Source of the DNA: Candidatus Latescibacterota bacterium
GTDB lineage: Bacteria > Latescibacterota > UBA2968 > GCA-2709665
Assembly (NCBI GenBank): GCA_965208835.1
Contig: OZ242358.1
Location: 4,896,001 to 4,960,000 of the forward strand
Length of the DNA: 64,000 bases
Direction: 5' to 3'
In this document: piece by piece, positions 26,710-42,692 of the stretch
How positions within the stretch are numbered: position 1 is the stretch's first letter
How the letters are laid out: every line of letters starts with the position of its first letter
The notes under the pieces: model-generated
What the model was told of the DNA's origin: nothing
The model's database searches: none
The model's input: only the letters and a program-made list of their open reading frames with translations
Translations under genes and position numbers: made by a program

Positions 26710-27050
26710 GAGCTATCAGCCGTCAGCTATCAGCTAAAGGCAAAAACGAAAGGCAAAAACCGAATCAGGTGACGTCAACGCCGTGACGTTGGCAACCGCG
26801 AAAGGCAAGGCCCTCATCCCGCGACGGAGCCGTCAGCTATCAGCTAAAGACGAAATGCAAAGTCAGGAGCAAGATCAAAGACAACTCAGACGAAGACCGC
26901 CTCACACAAAGACACAAAGGCACTAAGACACAAAGAAAAGCAGAACCTCTCAAAGGCAGCTATCAGCTAAAGGCAAAAACCGAATCAGGTGACGTCAACA
27001 CCTTGACGTTGGCGAACGCGAGCGGCAAGGACCTCACCCGGAAAGTGAGG
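26710..27050 (+). repeat. A-rich region with AGCTATC/AGCCGTC heptamers and a duplicated ~85-bp unit
   Basis: AAAGGCAAAAACCGAATCAGGTGACGTCAAC at ~26749 and ~26969. Confidence 0.75.
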
Positions 27051-27122: not shown

Positions 27123-27520
27123 AAAAAAAGCGGGGAGAGGGTAGAGTACCGCACCACAGCCCACCACCTGGTGAGACGTAAGCCGGGAGAGGTTAGAGAT
27201 GTCCTGCCTCGTGAGGATTCTTTTCGTGCCGAAGGCAAGAAGGAGTGACCTGCCGGGCAAGGGCTTCTTCTACCGTCTACCCTCTTCCCTCTCACCGCCT
27301 TTATCCGACCTCTCTCCCCGGCCCCCCAAAAAACGGGTAGACGTAAGCCGGGAGAGGGTAGAAAACCACACCCCGCCCCACCACCTGGTGAGACGCAAAA
27401 CGTGAGACGGGAGAGATTTCCAGCCCTGTAAGGATTCTTCTCGTGCCGGATGCAAGAAGGAAAAATAGGTGGGGCAAAGATATCTTCTACCGTCTACCCT
27501 CTTCCCTCTCACCGCCTTTA
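27123..27520 (+). repeat. Two tandem heptamer-armed hairpin elements, copies F and G
   Basis: Cores at ~27196-27275 and ~27413-27490. Confidence 0.85.
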
Positions 27521-27961
27521 TCCGACCTCTCTCCCCGGCCCTCTCTCCTGTGAGGAGAGGGGGTGGAAATTCAATGGGTGGTCCACGATACCATCCGGCC
27601 GGTTTTTCTCGTACGAAACGCCGCCAGCCAATCCGGCCGTTCAGAGTCCCCTCTTCCTTCCTGTCTGAATAACACCAGAATTGGTAGTTTCCCAACGAAA
27701 CGCATTGTATTATCGTTATCCAAAGAGCCTTGCCACAACGAACCGGGCGGAAGCTGACGGGGAAGTCCGGGGTGTGTCTGTCCCGCGTCTCTATCGCAAG
27801 CCGGTAGAAGCAGGCTTCAACCCGGAAACACGATGTTGCCGGCAGTCGCTACAGAATCGCCCCGGTCGCGCCACACCCGTCAATAACACGATTCCCTTTC
27901 GCTTCTTGAGTCACCCGGAAGCTGTTCCTCCTACCTGAAGCTGCCATCCCCGGCATTACAT

Positions 27962-29869: not shown

Positions 29870-29965
29870 GACCAATCCGACCGAGTGGCAGTAGAAGTCA
29901 ACAATAAAGCCATCGATGATCTGTTGTCGTCGGAAGTGAATCCCATCAAGCCTATTCGCTTTTAG
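29870..29965 (-). pseudogene. Fragment of DUF559 (Vsr-like) endonuclease
   Basis: Minus strand reads LKANRLDGIHFRRQQIIDGFIVDFYCHSVGLV, with no start and no C-terminal half. Confidence 0.75.
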
Positions 29966-30390
29966 CTGTCAGCTATCAGCTGTCAGCTAAAACCAAAGGC
30001 GAGAATCAAAGGCAGCTTAAGGCAAGAACCAAAGTCAAAGGCAAGCCCTCCCCGTCACCCCGCAGACCTCTCAAAATAGCTATCAGCTATCAGCCGTCAG
30101 CTGTCAGATAAAAGCCAAACCGAATCAGTTGACGTCAGCGTTTTAGTACACACGGCCGCGAAAGACGCAGACCTCTCAAAATAGCTGTCAGCTATCAGCC
30201 GTCAGCCAAGAGCGAAAGGCAGAGTCAAGGGCAACCCCTCCACCCACACCCCCACAGACCTCTCAAAACAGCTATCAGCTATCAGCTGTCAGCTAAGAGT
30301 CAGAGGCAAAGTCAAAGACAACCCCTTCGCCCACACCCCCACAGACCTCTCCCCCCAAGCCCCCTCTCCTGTGAGGAGAGGGGGTGGAGA
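29962..30390 (+). repeat. Array of CAGACCTCTC(AAAA)-(AGCT[A/G]TC)n units
   Basis: CAGACCTCTC at 30063, 30168, 30255, 30342. Confidence 0.8.
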
Positions 30391-31278: not shown

Positions 31279-34200
31279 TCACCGGATCAGGATCAACCGC
31301 CGGGTATCCTGGAACCCGTTGGCGACGATGACCTGGTAGAAGTAGACGCCGCTCGAGACGGGTGCGCCGCGGTTGTCCGTTCCGCTCCATTGCACCGTAT
31401 AGCGGCCGGGCGCCTGGCGTTCGCGCACGAGCGTGCGCACCTCCTGGCCCAGCAGGTTGTAGATCCTCAGGATCACGTCCCCGCCTTCGGCCAGATCATA
31501 CGGTATGCTCGTCTGAGGGTTGAACGGGTTCGGATAGTTCCGGTGCAGCGCGAACTCCGCCGGTGGGCTCCGCACCTCCAGCGCGCCCGACGCCGCCACC
31601 GGGTTCCTCAGCCGATCCGCGTCGAACACCACGCCCCGCGCGATCTCGAAGCGGGCGACCTCCTCGAACGCCCCGAGGACCCGGAACGTGAAGGTCGCCA
31701 GCGGTCCCCCGCCGCTGACCGATCCCGATCCGACAATGGCGTTGGCCACCGGGACCCGGCCTTCATCCGGCCAGTTCCCGAACAGCGGCGTCCCGCCGCC
31801 CGTCGACTTCAGCAGGTCGCCTTCCGCCGGAGCGACCGTGACGAACTCGAACTTCCCGGCGTCATACAGCAGCTCCAGACCGTAGCCGTTCAGCCGCCTG
31901 GCGTTGGCCGTGGACACGGTCATCGAGATCGTCCCGCCGGGAGGCGCCATCTCGCCGGCCAGCTCGAGCGTCATCTCCACGTTGGCGTTCACGCCGGCAC
32001 GGCGCGCGGCGACGGCGAGCTTGCCGCCGGCAGGCGGTACGGCCGTGCGTCCGAACGATGCCGCCACGGTTGCGTAGTCGGAAAAGTCCACGACCCCGTC
32101 GTCATTCACGTCGGCCTGCGGGTTGTAGGCCGCGTCGCCCCTCCGGGCGCCGAAGGCGCTCGCGAATGCGACGACGTCCTCGAAGTCAAGCTCGAGGGTG
32201 CCGCCGCCGGACGGAAGCACGATGAGGTAAACCGGATCGCCCGCGGCGTCCACGAACTTCGCGCGGACGGAGATGTTGTCCACGGTGACCAATTGACCGG
32301 GCGTGACGTTGTCGTCGTCAAACGCGTCGATGCGATAGGCCAGAGACGCCACGCTGTCCGGCAGGTGCTCGTCCGCGAACCCCGTGGAACCCGGAGGCAG
32401 CGCGGCGATCTCCTCGAGGTCATCCGCTGTCGCGCCCCGCATCACCCTGTAGCCCTTCACACCCGGGACCGGAATGCTGTAACCCCGAAAGGGCCAGAAT
32501 CCGACCGTCCGGTCATCGGCCGAAGCCGTCCACCGCAGTACCACACCGCCGGCGCCTTCGCCGCTGACGCCGGTAACCGGGGCGGGAGGAATATTGTCCA
32601 CGGCGCCGGCCGGCGCCTCCGTAACCGTGCGGGCGGATACCAGCAGGCCGCCGCCCCCGGTGGACGTCCGGAGATGCTTCGGAACCGGGGCGCTGCCCGC
32701 CAGTGCGCCCGCGTTGGGACGAACGGGAACAAAGACCAGGTCCCTCCGATCGCCGACGACGGACCCGGCGACGTCTTCGGGCGCGACGGACCCGTCCATC
32801 GGTTCCTCGACCGACCGGACCGGTTCGTGCGGGATACCCAGCAGCCGTAGCGTCCGCTGTACGCTCTCCCTCGTAAAGACGCGCTTGCCGGGCGCGGCCG
32901 CATCCGACCTGCCTCCGCCCCCCACGGACCTGACGCCCCAGCGGGTGGCCGCGTTGTCCAGCGCGGGGATCACGGCGCGCAGCAAGGCCCCTCCCGGGTC
33001 ACCGGTTTCACCGCCGCTGTCCGCGGCCGGGACGATGCTCGCCCAGTGCATCCACACTTTACCGGGCACTTCGCCGTGGACTTCGTTTCCTTCCTCATCG
33101 TACCCCTTGAGCGTCGTCTCGACTTCCCTTTCGATCAGATAGCGAATCACGGCGCCGTTCCGCGCGGGTTTCGGAAAGCCGATCAGCACCATGCCGCCCT
33201 GATCGCCCTGACCGTCCGCGCCAAGATAGTCCGCGACCACGATGTTCGCGGGCGCGGCCGGGGCGCCCGGCGCCGATCCGGGACCGCCCCCATGCGCGAA
33301 ACTCACCGTCACGCTGCCCGTCAGCGCGCCGGTCACGGCATCGCCGCCCGTACCGGTGACCAGGTCCCGGTCGACCGTGCGCACGGCGATCGTGGCGCTG
33401 CCTTCCAGATCGGCGGCCACCGCGCCGAAATCGGCGCCGCCAGCCGTTACTTCCTGCCGGCCGAAGGGCACGGTTACCGCGGCGTTGCTGGAAGCGAACG
33501 CAACGGCCACCGATTCATACGTCGCCGAATCGGGCGTTGGATCGATCTTCATACTCGGGTTGCCGAACTCGTCCGCGGGAACCACACGGACCGTAAACGC
33601 GCCGGAAACGGCGCCTGTAGCGTCGCGGCCCTCGATGGCCGTTACCACAAACCGGGACATTTCGGAGGCGCCGACGTGTACGAGGCCATCGAGCCACCCC
33701 GCCGTTGCCAGGGAGTCGGTGCCGGTGACCGGGTCGCTGAATCCCGCCTCGGCCATCACGGTGACGTTTCTGAGCGGTTTTGTCGATGTGAAACTGACGT
33801 CACGCCGGCCCGCGTTCCATCCGTCGCCGTCCAGAACGGCGGCTCTCGCCACCATGCCCGCGCCGGCCAGGTCGGCGGGGAGGGAATAGTCCGGCGCATC
33901 GGTTACGCCGGCCCCGCTGAAGCTCACGCCGGCGAGCGCGCGGGCCTGGTCTCCCGAAACGATGACCGCCAACGCCGCAACCCGATGATAGGTCACTGCG
34001 GGAACGTCGGTTTCCTCGTTGCGGGTCAGTGAGGTGTCCAGCGCGGTAATCCGCACCGAGAATTCCTGACCGGCAACCACGGAGTCCGCCTGATCCGGCG
34101 CGGCGGCGACCTTGAATACGTCGGCGTTCGGATTCAGGAAGCCCCTGGTGAACGTGAGCGTCCCGCCGTCGGTCACGCTGGCGTTGCCGGCGAGGTCGAT

Positions 34201-35934
34201 CGCCAGAATCTGCAGGTCGTACCGGGTCCGGTCCAGGAATCTCGTATCGTCCACCGGCCAGCTCGCAAGTACGCCGGTGGACTCCAGCCGGCGGTTGCCC
34301 GGGCCGAAACGCTGTACGACGGCCGCGCCGCCGCCGGTCTCGACGTAACGGATGGAAAGGGAATCCAACGCCTCGTCGATGGTGAAGACCGGATTTCGGG
34401 TGGCCAGGTTGATGGTGGGCTCGCCGCCGTTGTCCGCGTCTCTGGGCGCGGCGGCAGCGGATGGGAACAGCTCACCGATCACCGGCGCCTTCTCATCGTA
34501 CCAGATGCCCTTCAATTCCATCGAGGACATGTTCCCGAGGCTGTCCCAGACCTCGATCGTCAGGTCTGCCCGTTTCCCGCCGGCCCTGCCGTATTTCCAG
34601 GGAAGACCGAGCACGGCAGTGGAATCGCTGCCGGTTGGCGCCATACCCTCATCGGGTGCGCCTGCGTCATCGATAGCGACGCTGCCAATGCCGTGGGTGC
34701 TGTCTCCATGGGTGATCCTGATCGAGTCAGGAACTTCGCTGAGTTCAAACTCAAGCGGCTTCAACCTGCGGTTGGTTTGAACACCCTGTTCCTCGCCTGG
34801 CAGGGGTATATAACCCGAAAGCGTTTGCGTGACGGCCGCCGAGATCCGGTCATCCATGTTGTCCGGATGGGGGTGGACGATCGCAATCCGCGGCCGGGTC
34901 GCGTCCGCGATCCATTCCACACCGTTGGGATCGAAGACACCGGCCATTCCGTGCCCGGCACTGACGGGAGATGCGGTCGGAGCATCCATCGAAGTGCCGC
35001 CCAGGTTTCCGGCGGGATCCACGAGGTAGGCTTCGACGCGTACCCGCCGGTTATCGGCAAAATCGCCTTCCTCAAGTTCCTTCGAAGCCCGCAGGTTCGC
35101 GCTGTATAACCTGTCTCCGAGAATCTCAAAGGAAACCGGCGCCGTGGAAAACGCAGAGTCTTCCTCCACGATTCCCGCCCGAATGCCGTACGCTCCCGAA
35201 TTGATCACATGGCCGGTGTTGAGATCGAGTCTGATCCGGATTTCGTCTCCAATTCCGAACCTCACGCGTTCAATCAGCCCGGCCTCCGTGGTATCGACAC
35301 CCAGGTCTTCCGTTACAACGGAGAACGACGTGAACGCGCCCGTGTGGACCGGGCGATTGGCGTCGATGCCGAACCGCACCCCGTCGCCGACCCTGCTGGC
35401 GCCGAAACCCGAGGACGCGGGAGTGATCTTCCTGTCGTTCATCAGGTTGTTCAATTCGTTACCGGTCGTGATCGCGTCGAGGTCGACCACAACCTTCACC
35501 GCCCGGTTGTCTTTCGACCCAAAGGCTGCAGCTTGCGGGGATACGGTTATGGAAATACGGAACGTATCGACACCTGATGCCTCGCCGTCGCCAAACGTGA
35601 CGCCGTCCGGCGGATCAGCGGAATCGGGTATATATATATTGTAATAGATAAACCCATCGTCGTCGTCGGTCCCGCCGGGCGTGGCGCCGACGTCGTCGTC
35701 GTCGAGCGTTGCGTCAACCACCGAGACGCGGAAGCCGTGGTCGAGAATGCCATCGTACGTCAGAATGCGGATTTCGATCCGGTCGTCGATTCCAACCCAC
35801 GTACCGGCGGCAGGTTTGTCGACGCGAATTGCGATACCCTTCGTGTCCGCGACTTCCTGCGGCCACGCGACGCGGACAAAGCCAACAACCATCTGGAACG
35901 CCAGAACCGGACCCAGAACCCTGCGCAGCGCCAT
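31279..35934 (-). CDS. Second large secreted surface protein, paralogue of 20884-25587
   Basis: Collinear motifs (DEFGNPSMKI, GDQGGMV, RVFT.ESVQ.TL, QADVNDDG.VDF.D, PNPFNPQT). Confidence 0.82.
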   Translation of the reverse strand: MALRRVLGPVLAFQMVVGFVRVAWPQEVADTKGIAIRVDKPAAGTWVGIDDRIEIRILTYDGILDHGFRVSVVDATLDDDDVGATPGGTDDDDGFIYYNIYIPDSADPPDGVTFGDGEASGVDTFRISITVSPQAAAFGSKDNRAVKVVVDLDAITTGNELNNLMNDRKITPASSGFGASRVGDGVRFGIDANRPVHTGAFTSFSVVTEDLGVDTTEAGLIERVRFGIGDEIRIRLDLNTGHVINSGAYGIRAGIVEEDSAFSTAPVSFEILGDRLYSANLRASKELEEGDFADNRRVRVEAYLVDPAGNLGGTSMDAPTASPVSAGHGMAGVFDPNGVEWIADATRPRIAIVHPHPDNMDDRISAAVTQTLSGYIPLPGEEQGVQTNRRLKPLEFELSEVPDSIRITHGDSTHGIGSVAIDDAGAPDEGMAPTGSDSTAVLGLPWKYGRAGGKRADLTIEVWDSLGNMSSMELKGIWYDEKAPVIGELFPSAAAAPRDADNGGEPTINLATRNPVFTIDEALDSLSIRYVETGGGAAVVQRFGPGNRRLESTGVLASWPVDDTRFLDRTRYDLQILAIDLAGNASVTDGGTLTFTRGFLNPNADVFKVAAAPDQADSVVAGQEFSVRITALDTSLTRNEETDVPAVTYHRVAALAVIVSGDQARALAGVSFSGAGVTDAPDYSLPADLAGAGMVARAAVLDGDGWNAGRRDVSFTSTKPLRNVTVMAEAGFSDPVTGTDSLATAGWLDGLVHVGASEMSRFVVTAIEGRDATGAVSGAFTVRVVPADEFGNPSMKIDPTPDSATYESVAVAFASSNAAVTVPFGRQEVTAGGADFGAVAADLEGSATIAVRTVDRDLVTGTGGDAVTGALTGSVTVSFAHGGGPGSAPGAPAAPANIVVADYLGADGQGDQGGMVLIGFPKPARNGAVIRYLIEREVETTLKGYDEEGNEVHGEVPGKVWMHWASIVPAADSGGETGDPGGALLRAVIPALDNAATRWGVRSVGGGGRSDAAAPGKRVFTRESVQRTLRLLGIPHEPVRSVEEPMDGSVAPEDVAGSVVGDRRDLVFVPVRPNAGALAGSAPVPKHLRTSTGGGGLLVSARTVTEAPAGAVDNIPPAPVTGVSGEGAGGVVLRWTASADDRTVGFWPFRGYSIPVPGVKGYRVMRGATADDLEEIAALPPGSTGFADEHLPDSVASLAYRIDAFDDDNVTPGQLVTVDNISVRAKFVDAAGDPVYLIVLPSGGGTLELDFEDVVAFASAFGARRGDAAYNPQADVNDDGVVDFSDYATVAASFGRTAVPPAGGKLAVAARRAGVNANVEMTLELAGEMAPPGGTISMTVSTANARRLNGYGLELLYDAGKFEFVTVAPAEGDLLKSTGGGTPLFGNWPDEGRVPVANAIVGSGSVSGGGPLATFTFRVLGAFEEVARFEIARGVVFDADRLRNPVAASGALEVRSPPAEFALHRNYPNPFNPQTSIPYDLAEGGDVILRIYNLLGQEVRTLVRERQAPGRYTVQWSGTDNRGAPVSSGVYFYQVIVANGFQDTRRLILIR

Positions 35935-36297
35935 CGCCAACCTCCGTGTGAATCAGACCGTTCCCGTTAACCCGCCTTGCGGCGACCGAACCTCAGTCGG
36001 CGGCAAGTACGGCAAAATGCATGCCAGCGGATGGCGGAACGCCGGGACGGGTGACGCGGGAAGGATGACAACGTGAGTTGGGCGAGACGGGGATGCGGGA
36101 GACGTTGACGCCGCGGTTGCGGAAACCTGCGTCGACGCTGCGCTGGAAGGCGATATGGCGGGGAGTCGGGACAGAAACGCTGCGGCAGATACGAAAGATG
36201 CCTCAGCCATCAGGGAGATTCATGGCGTGAGGCATCGGGAGGCGAGATACGAAGGAGGATGGAACTTTTCGTTCAATTGGGTGAAAGAAAGAGGCTA

Positions 36298-36472
36298 ATG
36301 GCGGGCAGAGGTGAGAGGGGAGACGTTAGACGGGAGAGATTACCTGCCTTGAGAGGATACATTTCGTGCCGAAGGCAAGGAGGAAAAACATACCGGGCGA
36401 GGATTTCTTCTCCCGTCTCACCTCTCCCGTCTCCCCGCCTTTTTTCTACCGTCTTACCTCTACCCGCCTTTC
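36298..36472 (+). repeat. Heptamer-armed hairpin element, copy H
   Basis: Core CCTGCCTTGAGAGGATACATTTCGTGCCGAAGGCAAG. Confidence 0.85.
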
Positions 36473-36478
36473 GGCCGG

Positions 36479-36922
36479 CTATTCCTTCACAACCCACACC
36501 TTCACTGTGGCGCTGACGTCGGCGTGAAGCCGGATGGAGACGTCGTAGACGCCGAGAGCGCGGATGGGTTCCTCTAGCTCGATCAACCGCCGGTCGATCT
36601 CGAAGCCCTGCTCGACGAGATGCTCGGAAATGTGCTGCGTGGTCACGGAGCCGAAAATATGGTCTTCCTTGCCCACCGCAACCGGTATGGTGCAGGATGC
36701 CTTTTCGAGCTTCTTCGACAGCGCCACGGCGTCGCGCTGGGCGCGGTTGTGGCGGGCCTCCTTCTGGCGCTTGAGCTCCTCGTAGACCTTCATATTACCC
36801 CTGCTGGCGACGAGGGCCAGATTCCGGGGGAGGAGGAAGTTCCTGGCGTACCCGTCCTTCACGTCCACGACGGACCCGGCATCGCCCAGGTTGTCCAGTG
36901 TTTCGGTAAGAATGATTTTCAT
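36479..36922 (-). CDS. rplI: 50S ribosomal protein L9
   Basis: MKIIL...LGDAGSVVDVKDGYARNFLLP, FGSVT. Confidence 0.97.
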   Translation of the reverse strand: MKIILTETLDNLGDAGSVVDVKDGYARNFLLPRNLALVASRGNMKVYEELKRQKEARHNRAQRDAVALSKKLEKASCTIPVAVGKEDHIFGSVTTQHISEHLVEQGFEIDRRLIELEEPIRALGVYDVSIRLHADVSATVKVWVVKE

Positions 36923-37071
36923 AGTGGTTCCCTTTCCATCTGCGCATTGGCCAAATGGCTGTTTGCGTTAGTAATTGAAAGAGGGTAGACGTAAGACGTA
37001 AGACGGGAGATGATATGAGTGCCCTATCGGCTTAAAAGATGTAAAAACAATGGCTAAGTTATCCGCCTGGG

Positions 37072-37431
37072 TTAACGTGAAACTTTGCTAATCAATCCTG
37101 ACAGCAAACCAAACATTCGGTTCATTGTTTCTGTTATTGACTGAACGTCATCCTCCGAACACAATTGGAGGTTTAGTGCAATTTCAAGCTGAGTATCCAA
37201 CTCAACCAACGAACTCCTGGCTATTTCGAGAAATCTTCTACGTTCAGAATTCGAAGATCTCGCTGATCCTTCGGCGATGTTGGACGGTATTGAGACAGCA
37301 GATCGTCGCAACTGGCTGGTAATGCCAAAAAGCTCGGTGGAGGGGAATTCAGCGGTCAGGGTATAAATCTCGTTAACCAGATCAATGCTCTTTTGCCATA
37401 CTACAAGCTTCTTGTGGCTGAGTTCCATCAT
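37072..37431 (-). CDS. Four helix bundle protein (23S rRNA IVP / Avd-like family)
   Basis: LVVWQKS, FPSTELFGITSQLRRSAVSIPSNIAEG, ARSSLVELDTQL; AT-rich relative to neighbours. Confidence 0.92.
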   Translation of the reverse strand: MMELSHKKLVVWQKSIDLVNEIYTLTAEFPSTELFGITSQLRRSAVSIPSNIAEGSARSSNSERRRFLEIARSSLVELDTQLEIALNLQLCSEDDVQSITETMNRMFGLLSGLISKVSR

Positions 37432-37501
37432 TGTGTCTTGGGTCTATCCTTTTTGACCCGCCACGGGACCAGGCAGCGAGGTTCTTTCTCCCAAGTCTTC
37501 C

Positions 37502-37745
37502 CGAGGTTAGACGAAAGACGTAAGAGGGGAGAAGACCACACCACACCCCACCTCCTGGTGAGACGTGAGCCGGGAGAGGGGGAAAAAACCGGGTAGACGG
37601 GAGACGTAAGACGGGAGAAGATGTCCTCGCCGGCTATCTTATCCCTCCTTGCCTCCGGCACGAAAAGAAGCCGCACAAGGCAGGAAATCTCTACCCTCTA
37701 CCGTCTTACCTCTTCCCGCCTTTCTTCTACCGTCTCACCGCCTTT
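37502..37745 (-). repeat. Heptamer-armed hairpin element, copy J
   Basis: Inverted near-duplicate of copy B. Confidence 0.85.
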
Positions 37746-37968
37746 ACGACATGCTGTCCGTTGCAAAAGGCAACAGCGCGATCTGGCGGGCGCGTTTCAG
37801 GTGCCGGGTGAGGCTGCGCTGGTGCCGGGCGCACGTTCCCGATACGCGCCGGGGAATGATCTTTCCGCGGTCCGTGACGAACCGCTGCATCAGCCGTACG
37901 TCCTTATAGTCTATCGTCAACGCCTTGTCTTCGCAAAATCTGCAAACCTTCACCGTGGACCGGTTCAT
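37744..37968 (-). CDS. rpsR: 30S ribosomal protein S18
   Basis: [28 protein letters not shown]. Confidence 0.97.
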
Positions 37969-38354
37969 GCTCCCTCCTCGTTCTCGACGCCGCTTTCGTC
38001 TTCCTCTTCCTCTTCGCCGCCATCCGCTTCGTCATCCTCGACCTCTTCCGGTTCTTCCTCCACCGGGGTTTCGTCCAGAACCACCAGGTGCCGCAGTAGG
38101 GACTCATCCAGCTTGAGTACGCGGTCGATTTCGGGAAGGGCCTCCGGCGGAGCCTCGAACCGGACGAACGTATAGTCTCCGCGGTTCTGCTTGCCGATAT
38201 CGTAGGCAAGCTTGCGGTTGCCCCAGCGATCCACCTCCACCGAGCGGCCGCCGCCTTCGGAAACGAGGCGATCGAAGCGCGCGACGAGATCGTCGACCGT
38301 GCCATCGGGCGCCTGCGGGTTGACAATGAGCGTGAGTTCGTAACGTCTGGACAT
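37965..38354 (-). CDS. rpsF: 30S ribosomal protein S6 with acidic tail
   Basis: [21 protein letters not shown]. Confidence 0.96.
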
Positions 38355-38572
38355 GGAACCTCCCCCTGGACAAGTGGCCCGCGGGCAGCCCGACCGGGCG
38401 CGCGCGAGCGGGGTAATTGGGAAAACAGCTATCAGTGGTCAGACAAAAGCGAAAAGGCGGGCGACCACAAGGGTCGCCCCTACAAATACAATGTCGTTGC
38501 AGGAAGAAGTGATAGACGACAAAGTTACCGCCACTTCTTCTTTCTTCCTTTTTCCTTCTTCCTTTTGTTGAA

Positions 38573-42351: not shown

Positions 42352-42422
42352 CTGCCGGGCAGGGATTCGAACCCCGATAAACGGCTCCAAAGGCCGCTGT
42401 CTTACCCTTAGACGACCCGGCA
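42352..42422 (-). tRNA. tRNA-Gln(TTG), CCA not encoded
   Basis: TGCCGGG acceptor stem, anticodon loop CTTTGGA, GGTTCGAATCC T-arm. Confidence 0.95.
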
Positions 42423-42427
42423 TCACC

Positions 42428-42692
42428 AAACGGTGAGACGTAAGACGTTAGAGGACCACACCCCACCACCTGGTGAGACGTGAGCCGGGAGAGGGTAGAG
42501 AACCAAACCCCGCCCGCCACATGGTGAGACGTGAGCCGGGAGACGGGAGAGATTACCTGCCTTGTGACGATTCTTATCGTGCCAAAGGCAAGGAGGAATA
42601 TCTCAGCTGGCAAGGATTTCTTCTACCGTCTTACGTCTACCCTCTACCCGCGTTTTTTCTACCGTCTCCCCTCTACCCTCTCCCCGCCTTTA
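42428..42692 (+). repeat. Heptamer-armed hairpin element, copy M
   Basis: Core CCTGCCTTGTGACGATTCTTATCGTGCCAAAGGCAAG. Confidence 0.85.

Follow-up and report, generated by a model that had tools for sequence, protein, structure and literature searches.

A PF05635 four-helix-bundle gene bracketed by heptamer arrays in the rpsR–rplI spacer of a Candidatus Latescibacterota genome

Introduction

To our knowledge, few bacterial protein families with no assigned function are as common as S23p/PF05635. Many genomes contain tandem heptamers, a long-standing feature that lacks an explanation, and the STRR are heptanucleotide repeats of cyanobacteria. ORF-bearing intervening sequences (IVSs) of 23S rRNA were reportedly worked on by Ralph and McClelland in 1993. 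PMC4990558 describes a Coxiella IVS that is excised by RNase III and has a variable number of tandem heptamers ahead of its S23p ORF, which is decaying and probably untranslated. Genes of the family are also placed between cas genes, for example cmr3 and cmr2 (PMC3936711), and the domain is placed within rRNA insertions of candidate-phyla bacteria (a 2024 preprint). PMC10053308 treats PF05635 proteins and the Avd-like proteins found near retroelement reverse transcriptases as equivalent. Avd itself is, by the titles of PDB entries 4DWL and 8UBE, part of a retroelement ribonucleoprotein with a reverse transcriptase. Heptamer-flanked PF05635 cassettes were not found described as a class in the openly accessible main texts.

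Here, one genome ties the S23p family to heptamer repeats through four paralogues, three words and 183 hairpins carrying one of these words. Its sister genomes display cassette replacement and decay at fixed junctions.

Results

The genome is a single contig of 5.18 Mb (59.5% G+C), called G000 among the relatives compared. The window is the whole stretch of DNA that was analysed, 64,000 nt in length, and all coordinates refer to it unless stated otherwise. The sequence of the locus stretch is present in sponge metagenomes; no RNA run is listed as containing it. On the minus strand the gene order is rpsF, rpsR, a 119-aa ORF and rplI, and the features are as follows.

36296..36478, no strand assigned: hairpin repeat copy directly 3' of rplI (run 36308-36335, 75-nt core, inverted run 36411-36470, T-run; nhmmer E 1.7e-39)
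36479..36922, minus strand: rplI, ribosomal protein L9 (Pfam L9 N- and C-terminal domains)
36923..36977, minus strand: native rplI leader, retained among G000, G011 and G006
36978..37010, minus strand: heptamer run at the cassette 3' end (four units of GA[CG]GNNA, plus-strand reading)
37011..37071, minus strand: cassette 3' untranslated part, with a terminal motif common to all close homologues
37072..37431, minus strand: PF05635/TIGR02436 four-helix-bundle gene, 119 aa (profile, structure and selection evidence)
37432..37502, minus strand: cassette 5' untranslated part, without a promoter-like site on the gene strand
37503..37532, minus strand: heptamer run at the cassette 5' end, in direct orientation relative to 36981-37010
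37533..37582, no strand assigned: module with a short CACC..GGTG palindrome and a degenerate run (sequence; the same module edges other hairpin copies)
37583..37745, no strand assigned: hairpin copy J, directly 3' of rpsR (run 37590-37618, core, inverted run 37692-37740)
37744..37968, minus strand: rpsR, ribosomal protein S18 (Pfam)
37965..38354, minus strand: rpsF, ribosomal protein S6 (Pfam)

The two hairpin copies lie in opposite orientation. A repeat search found 131 nt of copy J to be 82% complementary to 36314-36444, and the copy J repeat ends 4 nt short of the rpsR stop. Stable folds are predicted on either strand both for the copy beyond rplI (z -4.2 to -4.3) and for copy J (z -3.7 and -4.1). 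The 152 nt from the cassette-gene stop to the rplI start are 95% identical between G000 and G011 and 93% identical between G000 and G006.

A sequence-only reading of the window had described ORF 37072-37431 as a low-G+C four-helix-bundle gene with an Avd-related structure. Both descriptions hold. G+C is 0.41-0.49 over 37000-37524, compared with 0.58-0.66 in rplI and rpsR, and the minus-strand ORF is a PF05635/S23p gene, scoring 128.3 bits (E 1.7e-37, cut-off 33.8) against PF05635 and 123.4 bits (cut-off 24) against TIGR02436. A phmmer search matched it to the XCC0516 structure (PDB 2GSC) with E 6.7e-29. The predicted structure comprises four long helices (pLDDT 96.3) and superposes on XCC0516 with a TM of 0.93 and an rmsd of 1.0. 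On Avd (4DWL) the predicted model gave a TM of 0.81 at 12% identity, and on the Avd chains of the retroelement ribonucleoprotein (8UBE) a TM of about 0.8. The predicted fold is thus like that of the Avd of diversity-generating retroelements. The gene differs from Avd in its low sequence identity, in scoring 22.2 bits with the Avd equivalog model NF033474 (cut-off 80), and in its genome, where no reverse transcriptase (PF00078) was matched anywhere. Beside the gene, the sequence examined showed neither a template nor a variable repeat. The PF22296 score (20.7 bits) was also under its cut-off of 40.

R43, N51 and E54 are invariant among 42 aligned sequences, and S47 nearly so. The R..S..N..E motif is therefore present; the residue three positions ahead of R43 is an invariant Q, not the G of the family motif GxxRxxxSxxxNxxE given in PMC3936711. 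Within the clade of this gene (the A-clade), dN/dS was 0.10-0.26 for 20 of the 21 pairs of seven close homologues, namely those with any synonymous difference. The gene is intact and under purifying selection. Its best named relative, at 97% identity, is in a metagenome-assembled Gemmatimonadota genome. PADLOC defence-system models gave no match to the three paralogues scanned. No sigma-70-like promoter site was present on the gene strand, and site counts were not above those of shuffles.

The two 30-mers (36981-37010 and 37503-37532) share a strand and 27 of 30 positions, and a repeat search placed them in one direct-repeat family. Their word is GA[CG]GNNA. The sequence-only reading was right that same-orientation heptamer runs flank the ORF, and that the second continues into copy J, which it does via the 50-nt module at 37533-37582. 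The chance that a random 360-nt segment has a strict run no more than 120 nt away on each flank was 1e-4 genome-wide and 0.0024 in the window; such runs are present at this gene and at paralogue C. Word and boundary motifs are common to all eight A-clade genes, which occupy at least three sites, and the junction of 5' run and 5' flank is conserved in A-clade cassettes elsewhere. The untranslated parts were found in G000 at loci A and C only. Judged by these shared ends, the gene and its two runs are a cassette of about 550 nt (36978-37532). It had been proposed instead that the gene is cargo embedded in a hairpin arm. This is not borne out: the runs are the cassette's own conserved ends in 8/8 close homologues, and the hairpin adjoins the cassette. 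An excised form could not be claimed from the contigs of four sequencing runs, because joints spanning the cassette are short-sided and the repeat family confounds them.

The closest described counterparts are the ORF-bearing 23S rRNA IVSs of Coxiella burnetii and Leptospira. These have in common with the cassette the protein family (S23p) and a short sense-orientation insertion within a host transcription unit. Repeats around the ORF may likewise be capable of a stem; in the cassette both flanking runs point the same way, and the inverted partner would come from the hairpin next to it. As in the Coxiella IVS, tandem heptamers of variable copy number lie beside the ORF; one 7-nt unit is missing from the 3' run in a contig of sequencing run X5, from another sample. 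Unlike a 23S IVS, the cassette lies between the protein genes rpsR and rplI and not in an rRNA helix, and its word also builds 183 gene-less hairpins. Its gene is under purifying selection, unlike the decaying Coxiella ORF.

The rpsR–rplI junction was compared among relatives. The spacer is 11-133 nt in all 15 other-genera loci that hold both genes (two further loci, without an rpsR match, are outside this count) but 193-1105 nt in 13/13 loci of the genus, a count that leaves aside G005 and G012, where the rplI query was not found. The gene does split rpsR and rplI, as had been suggested, and, by spacer length, the junction was tight before the cassette was inserted. The gene is found there in 3/13 genus genomes (G000, G011 and G006), the remaining spacers being filled with varied different repeats. 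The only cassette remnant found in these other spacers was a 16-nt end motif in G013. Against G011, the G000 sequence showed neither a clean empty site nor a duplicated target; the spacers differ wholesale.

The cassette gene is more similar between genomes than its neighbours are. Identity between G000 and G011 is 99.7% for the cassette gene and 96.6% for rplI, and between G000 and G006 it is 97.8% and 88.4%, respectively. Synonymous differences numbered 0/83 in the gene versus 13/159 in rplI plus rpsR for G000-G011 (p 0.005), and 5/84 versus 42/160 for G000-G006 (p 7e-5). Fewer synonymous changes than in the adjacent ribosomal genes point to a cassette recently exchanged or converted at the shared site. 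RNA constraint could be another cause of the low synonymous rate.

G000 has four PF05635 genes (A-D), A being the gene described above. Copy C is 84% identical to A and has the same word on both sides as direct repeats, with about 45 nt repeated. Copy B is flanked by GGAGTGA/GGAGAGA words and copy D by GAATTAA words. The expectation that paralogue flanks would carry the same heptamers was thus borne out in part: every paralogue has heptamers, but the GA[CG]GNNA word is at one of the three others, the remaining two having words of their own. All four genes lie in sense orientation with co-directional neighbours on both sides. PF05635 is patchy in the order (26/41 genomes, with 0 to 14 matches each). 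Inspection of 46 PF05635 loci in genomes of the order, the four of G000 included, gave clade-specific words: GACGNNA with conserved junction motifs at both ends for clade A, GAGGAGA-type for B, AATTCTT for D, and AGCTGA-type, GGAAGAA, CAGTGGC and GGTACCC for further clades. G000 also has orphan arrays of the AGCTGA and GGAAGAA types, whose cognate gene clades are in sister genomes only.

At the locus of paralogue D (L033; G000:C1:1518000-1522600), three repeats of the gene's 3' third surround the intact copy, each bounded by GAATTAA arrays. A D-clade gene is at the same glycosyltransferase-adjacent site in G002, G004, G013 and G006.

Paralogue C lies between an HlyD-like gene and an ABC ATPase gene, a junction that was compared in 15 genus genomes. 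An A-clade gene is there in four (G000, G003, G014 and G008) and a gene of the AGCTGA-word clade in another four (G006, G007, G009 and G010). Five have a gene-less spacer of 223-390 nt; of the rest, one shows no gene within 1500 nt, and in the other the junction runs into a contig end. In G012, which lacks a PF05635 match, the 246-nt spacer aligns with both ends of the full G014 cassette, at 82% and 81%, with 305 nt of ORF interior missing and both arms retained. G002 and G005 retain the 5' flank with the opening few codons, and the closing codons with the 3' end. These clade swaps and deleted copies imply that cassettes turn over at this fixed junction, replacing each other, and decay by internal deletion into gene-less heptamer hairpins. 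In the same spacer of G014 (L178), the full cassette is followed in tandem by two mini-cassettes with internal deletions and by several copies of the 3'-end motif and run. The tandem arrangement suggests unequal recombination between runs.

Period-7 tracts were counted around the gene in relatives from many phyla (80 loci, and 126 loci for array orientation). Stringent tracts cover 59 per kb within 150 nt of the gene and 3-5 per kb beyond 1 kb. Control periods near the gene gave about 0 (periods 5, 6, 10 and 11), 7 (period 8) and 9 (period 9). A stringent tract lies within 300 nt at 32/80 loci; under a looser rule, tracts are found in 68/152 gene-adjacent windows versus 46/1485 distant ones. 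By the rule applied, a tract flanks the gene at 76 of the 126 loci, on both sides at 36 of these, and is absent within 250 nt at 50. The both-sided arrays are inverted in 19 cases, direct in five, both in six and unrelated in six. Array length has a median of 3.9 units (127 tracts), which does not discriminate one word per pentamer subunit. Both neighbours are co-oriented with the gene at 45/63 loci and both opposed at five. Taken across these loci, heptamer arrays beside the gene are, in sequence terms, a cross-phylum trait of the PF05635 family.

The word itself varies from locus to locus. It is common to 85% of pairs at 80% identity or above, 50% at 60-80%, 10% at 50-60% and 2-4% lower; the word-identity correlation is -0.28, with 0/1000 shuffles below -0.13. 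A word common to close homologues is also expected from shared descent. Outside the A-clade, a GAGACG-type word is beside 4/14 homologues with at least 50% identity to A versus 1/53 below (p 0.006), the carriers at 52-56% identity being Balneolaceae, Chitinophaga and a deltaproteobacterial genome. These nearest homologues in other phyla, together with the clade-specific words, favour the specific tie between protein and word that the sequence-only reading had drawn.

The same reading had noted, correctly, that the heptamer word is common to the gene flanks and the hairpin family. G000 contains 301 strict runs (at least three units), against 0 in one order-3 Markov simulated genome, and 38 of them are in the window. 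Plus-strand runs precede a minus-strand run by no more than 250 nt 83 times, with a gap of exactly 75 nt in 45 of these; the reverse order occurs three times. Profile search gave 183 near-full hairpin copies of 120-160 nt, concentrated at 0-2 Mb and 4.8-5.18 Mb. By crude gene calls, 162/183 are intergenic and the median distance is 51 nt to 3' ends versus 117 nt to 5' ends. On the same crude calls, a terminator role was rejected, hairpins being no commoner between convergent genes than background. Core strand shows no preference relative to neighbouring genes (49 vs 62, p 0.25). The only Rfam matches were two microRNA-like hairpins, far under gathering scores.

In 100-kb bins of G000, the bin of the window has 51 runs, and runs and hairpins are nearly absent from 2.1-3.1 Mb. 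This uneven spread is possibly an effect of replication origin or gene density.

As hairpin-forming intergenic copies, about 183 in number and 120-160 nt long, these elements resemble REP/RAYT and MITE repeats, and with 7-nt tandem words in the hairpin arms they resemble cyanobacterial STRR. They differ from REP/RAYT in that a search of the genome with PF01797 found no Y1/RAYT transposase. They differ from both MITE and REP in having arms of tandem heptamers rather than a unique inverted repeat, arms that are common to a protein-coding cassette. Nor was an empty site or target duplication seen for any hairpin in 35000-59500 compared with G011 (about 24 kb of synteny), where spacers are replaced wholesale. 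We also considered the core as a cassette deletion product and rejected this: the 75-nt core compared with 75 nt on each side of the eight A-clade genes gave no z >3, and the cassette untranslated parts are confined to loci A and C. The 183 hairpins share arms with the cassettes and are relatives or by-products, not demonstrably products of this protein.

Long arrays of the word also occur in G034, of another family of the order, with for example about 40 tandem GACGTAA/GACGGGA units at C1:284774-285053. A PF05635 gene was not found in G034. The large word count of this genome arises because matches overlap within long arrays.

Discussion

On balance we lean, with somewhat better than even confidence, towards reading the locus as a PF05635 gene bracketed by clade-specific heptamer arrays and set in sense orientation in a spacer between co-transcribed genes, one member of a widespread class that is the non-rRNA counterpart of the ORF-bearing 23S IVS. 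The cassette would be transcribed together with the host operon. The purine-rich arm of the adjoining hairpin could then pair with the cassette run to give a long stem; the runs at this locus are direct, not inverted, so a stem needs the neighbouring hairpin. In the minimum-energy fold of a 791-nt sense RNA, the copy J arm has the run downstream of the ORF as its pairing partner (z -2.9, 20 shuffles), this being one of several possible folds. RNase III might cut such a stem, by analogy with rRNA intervening sequences. The protein, presumed to be ring-forming, may bind the array of its own heptamer, in RNA or single-stranded DNA form. Cassettes would move and replace one another by recombination between same-word arrays, a route invoked because the cassette brings no transposase, integrase or reverse transcriptase.

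The vague idea of the IVS ORF as a mobility factor becomes testable in this form, through own-word binding, RNase III cutting and array-guided insertion. For annotation, it matters that core operons, rpsF-rpsR-rplI among them, are interrupted by cassettes yet not destroyed.

A broader proposition, which we put forward tentatively and consider possible more than probable, is that PF05635 proteins are sequence-specific binders of 7-nt words. With their own arrays they would form transposase-free selfish cassettes at operon junctions that move and displace one another by array-guided recombination, and whose decay would seed the genome-wide heptamer-hairpin and tandem-heptamer families for which many bacterial phyla offer no explanation so far.

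An independent element that homes into pre-existing arrays is an unlikely alternative, and one that overlaps our preferred reading rather than excluding it. A circular or linear copy with one run would recombine with a resident run of the same word, giving flanking direct repeats. Direct repeats are indeed found at locus A (27/30) and locus C (about 45 nt), and in G014 and G003 tandem cassette or deleted-cassette units are separated by the same run. The swap of two clades at one junction holding arrays of both words, and the low synonymous divergence at the shared site, also fit. In other phyla, however, the flanks are mostly inverted (19 vs 5 direct) and most such genomes have few arrays elsewhere. 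A circular form or empty site was not seen; the contig joints are repeat-confounded.

The sequence-only reading had offered the protein as a factor that spreads the heptamer hairpins, and had proposed comparing gene count with repeat count across genomes. In its full form this makes the four-helix-bundle protein a trans-acting mobiliser and the 183 hairpins its non-autonomous dependants. Hairpin arms and cassette ends do have the same word, a hairpin adjoins the cassette at both gene loci, and the orphan AGCTGA- and GGAAGAA-type arrays of G000 match clades carried by sister genomes only. Deleted cassettes persist in gene-less sister genomes; the gene was once present there, so a past role is compatible with its absence today. 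The counts, however, do not follow the gene. Hairpin core matches are in 7/8 genus genomes in which no A-clade gene was found and are scarce in four with the gene, presence calls that leave out partial PF05635 matches in G004 and G010. In first-look counts, with the best 40 scored, core candidates numbered 74 in G002, 64 in G005 and 54 in G009, where no A-clade gene was found, but 14 in G008, 18 in G014, 20 in G003 and 25 in G013, where one is present. The core is not significantly like the cassette untranslated parts, which are not dispersed, and it lacks the strong strand preference of the cassettes (49 vs 62). Long arrays of the cassette word occur in G034, where PF05635 gave no match. We also know of no catalytic strand-transfer motif for such 119-aa helical bundles. 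With hairpin numbers that do not track gene presence and a core unrelated to the cassette, the proposed spreading role is not upheld, and we regard a mobiliser as improbable.

Coincidence, with an ordinary small host gene or a diversity-generating-retroelement leftover in a repeat-collecting spacer, could draw on the varied repeats that fill the rpsR–rplI spacer of every genus genome, the 38/301 runs in the window and the Avd-like fold (TM 0.81), but it is largely refuted and very improbable, given no reverse transcriptase domain in the whole genome, an Avd-model score of 22 bits against a cut-off of 80, and a gene and period-7 association that recurs across 80 loci of many phyla and at 4/4 G000 paralogues, each flanked by heptamers.

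Other Features of the Window

The window has several further features. Between rpsF and a proton-pumping pyrophosphatase gene, a composite repeat (38420-38572) joins a CAGCTATCAG-type word to CTTCTTC arrays, with a GC-rich palindrome between them; its words are those of four-helix-bundle clades present only in sister genomes. AGCTATC-word arrays at 26711-26936 and 29964-30351, with an 87-nt tandem unit and an 8-nt ACACAAAG array, represent a further heptamer family without a cognate gene in G000. At 27128-27541, a module-bearing hairpin element is duplicated in tandem with a 217-nt period and 82% identity. The minus-strand ORF at 31279-35940 (1553 aa) has a C-terminal stretch that may resemble a type IX secretion sorting domain. 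An apparent tRNA gene end at 42380-42433 has an encoded CCA in G000 that is absent in G011, and a hairpin cluster starts there.
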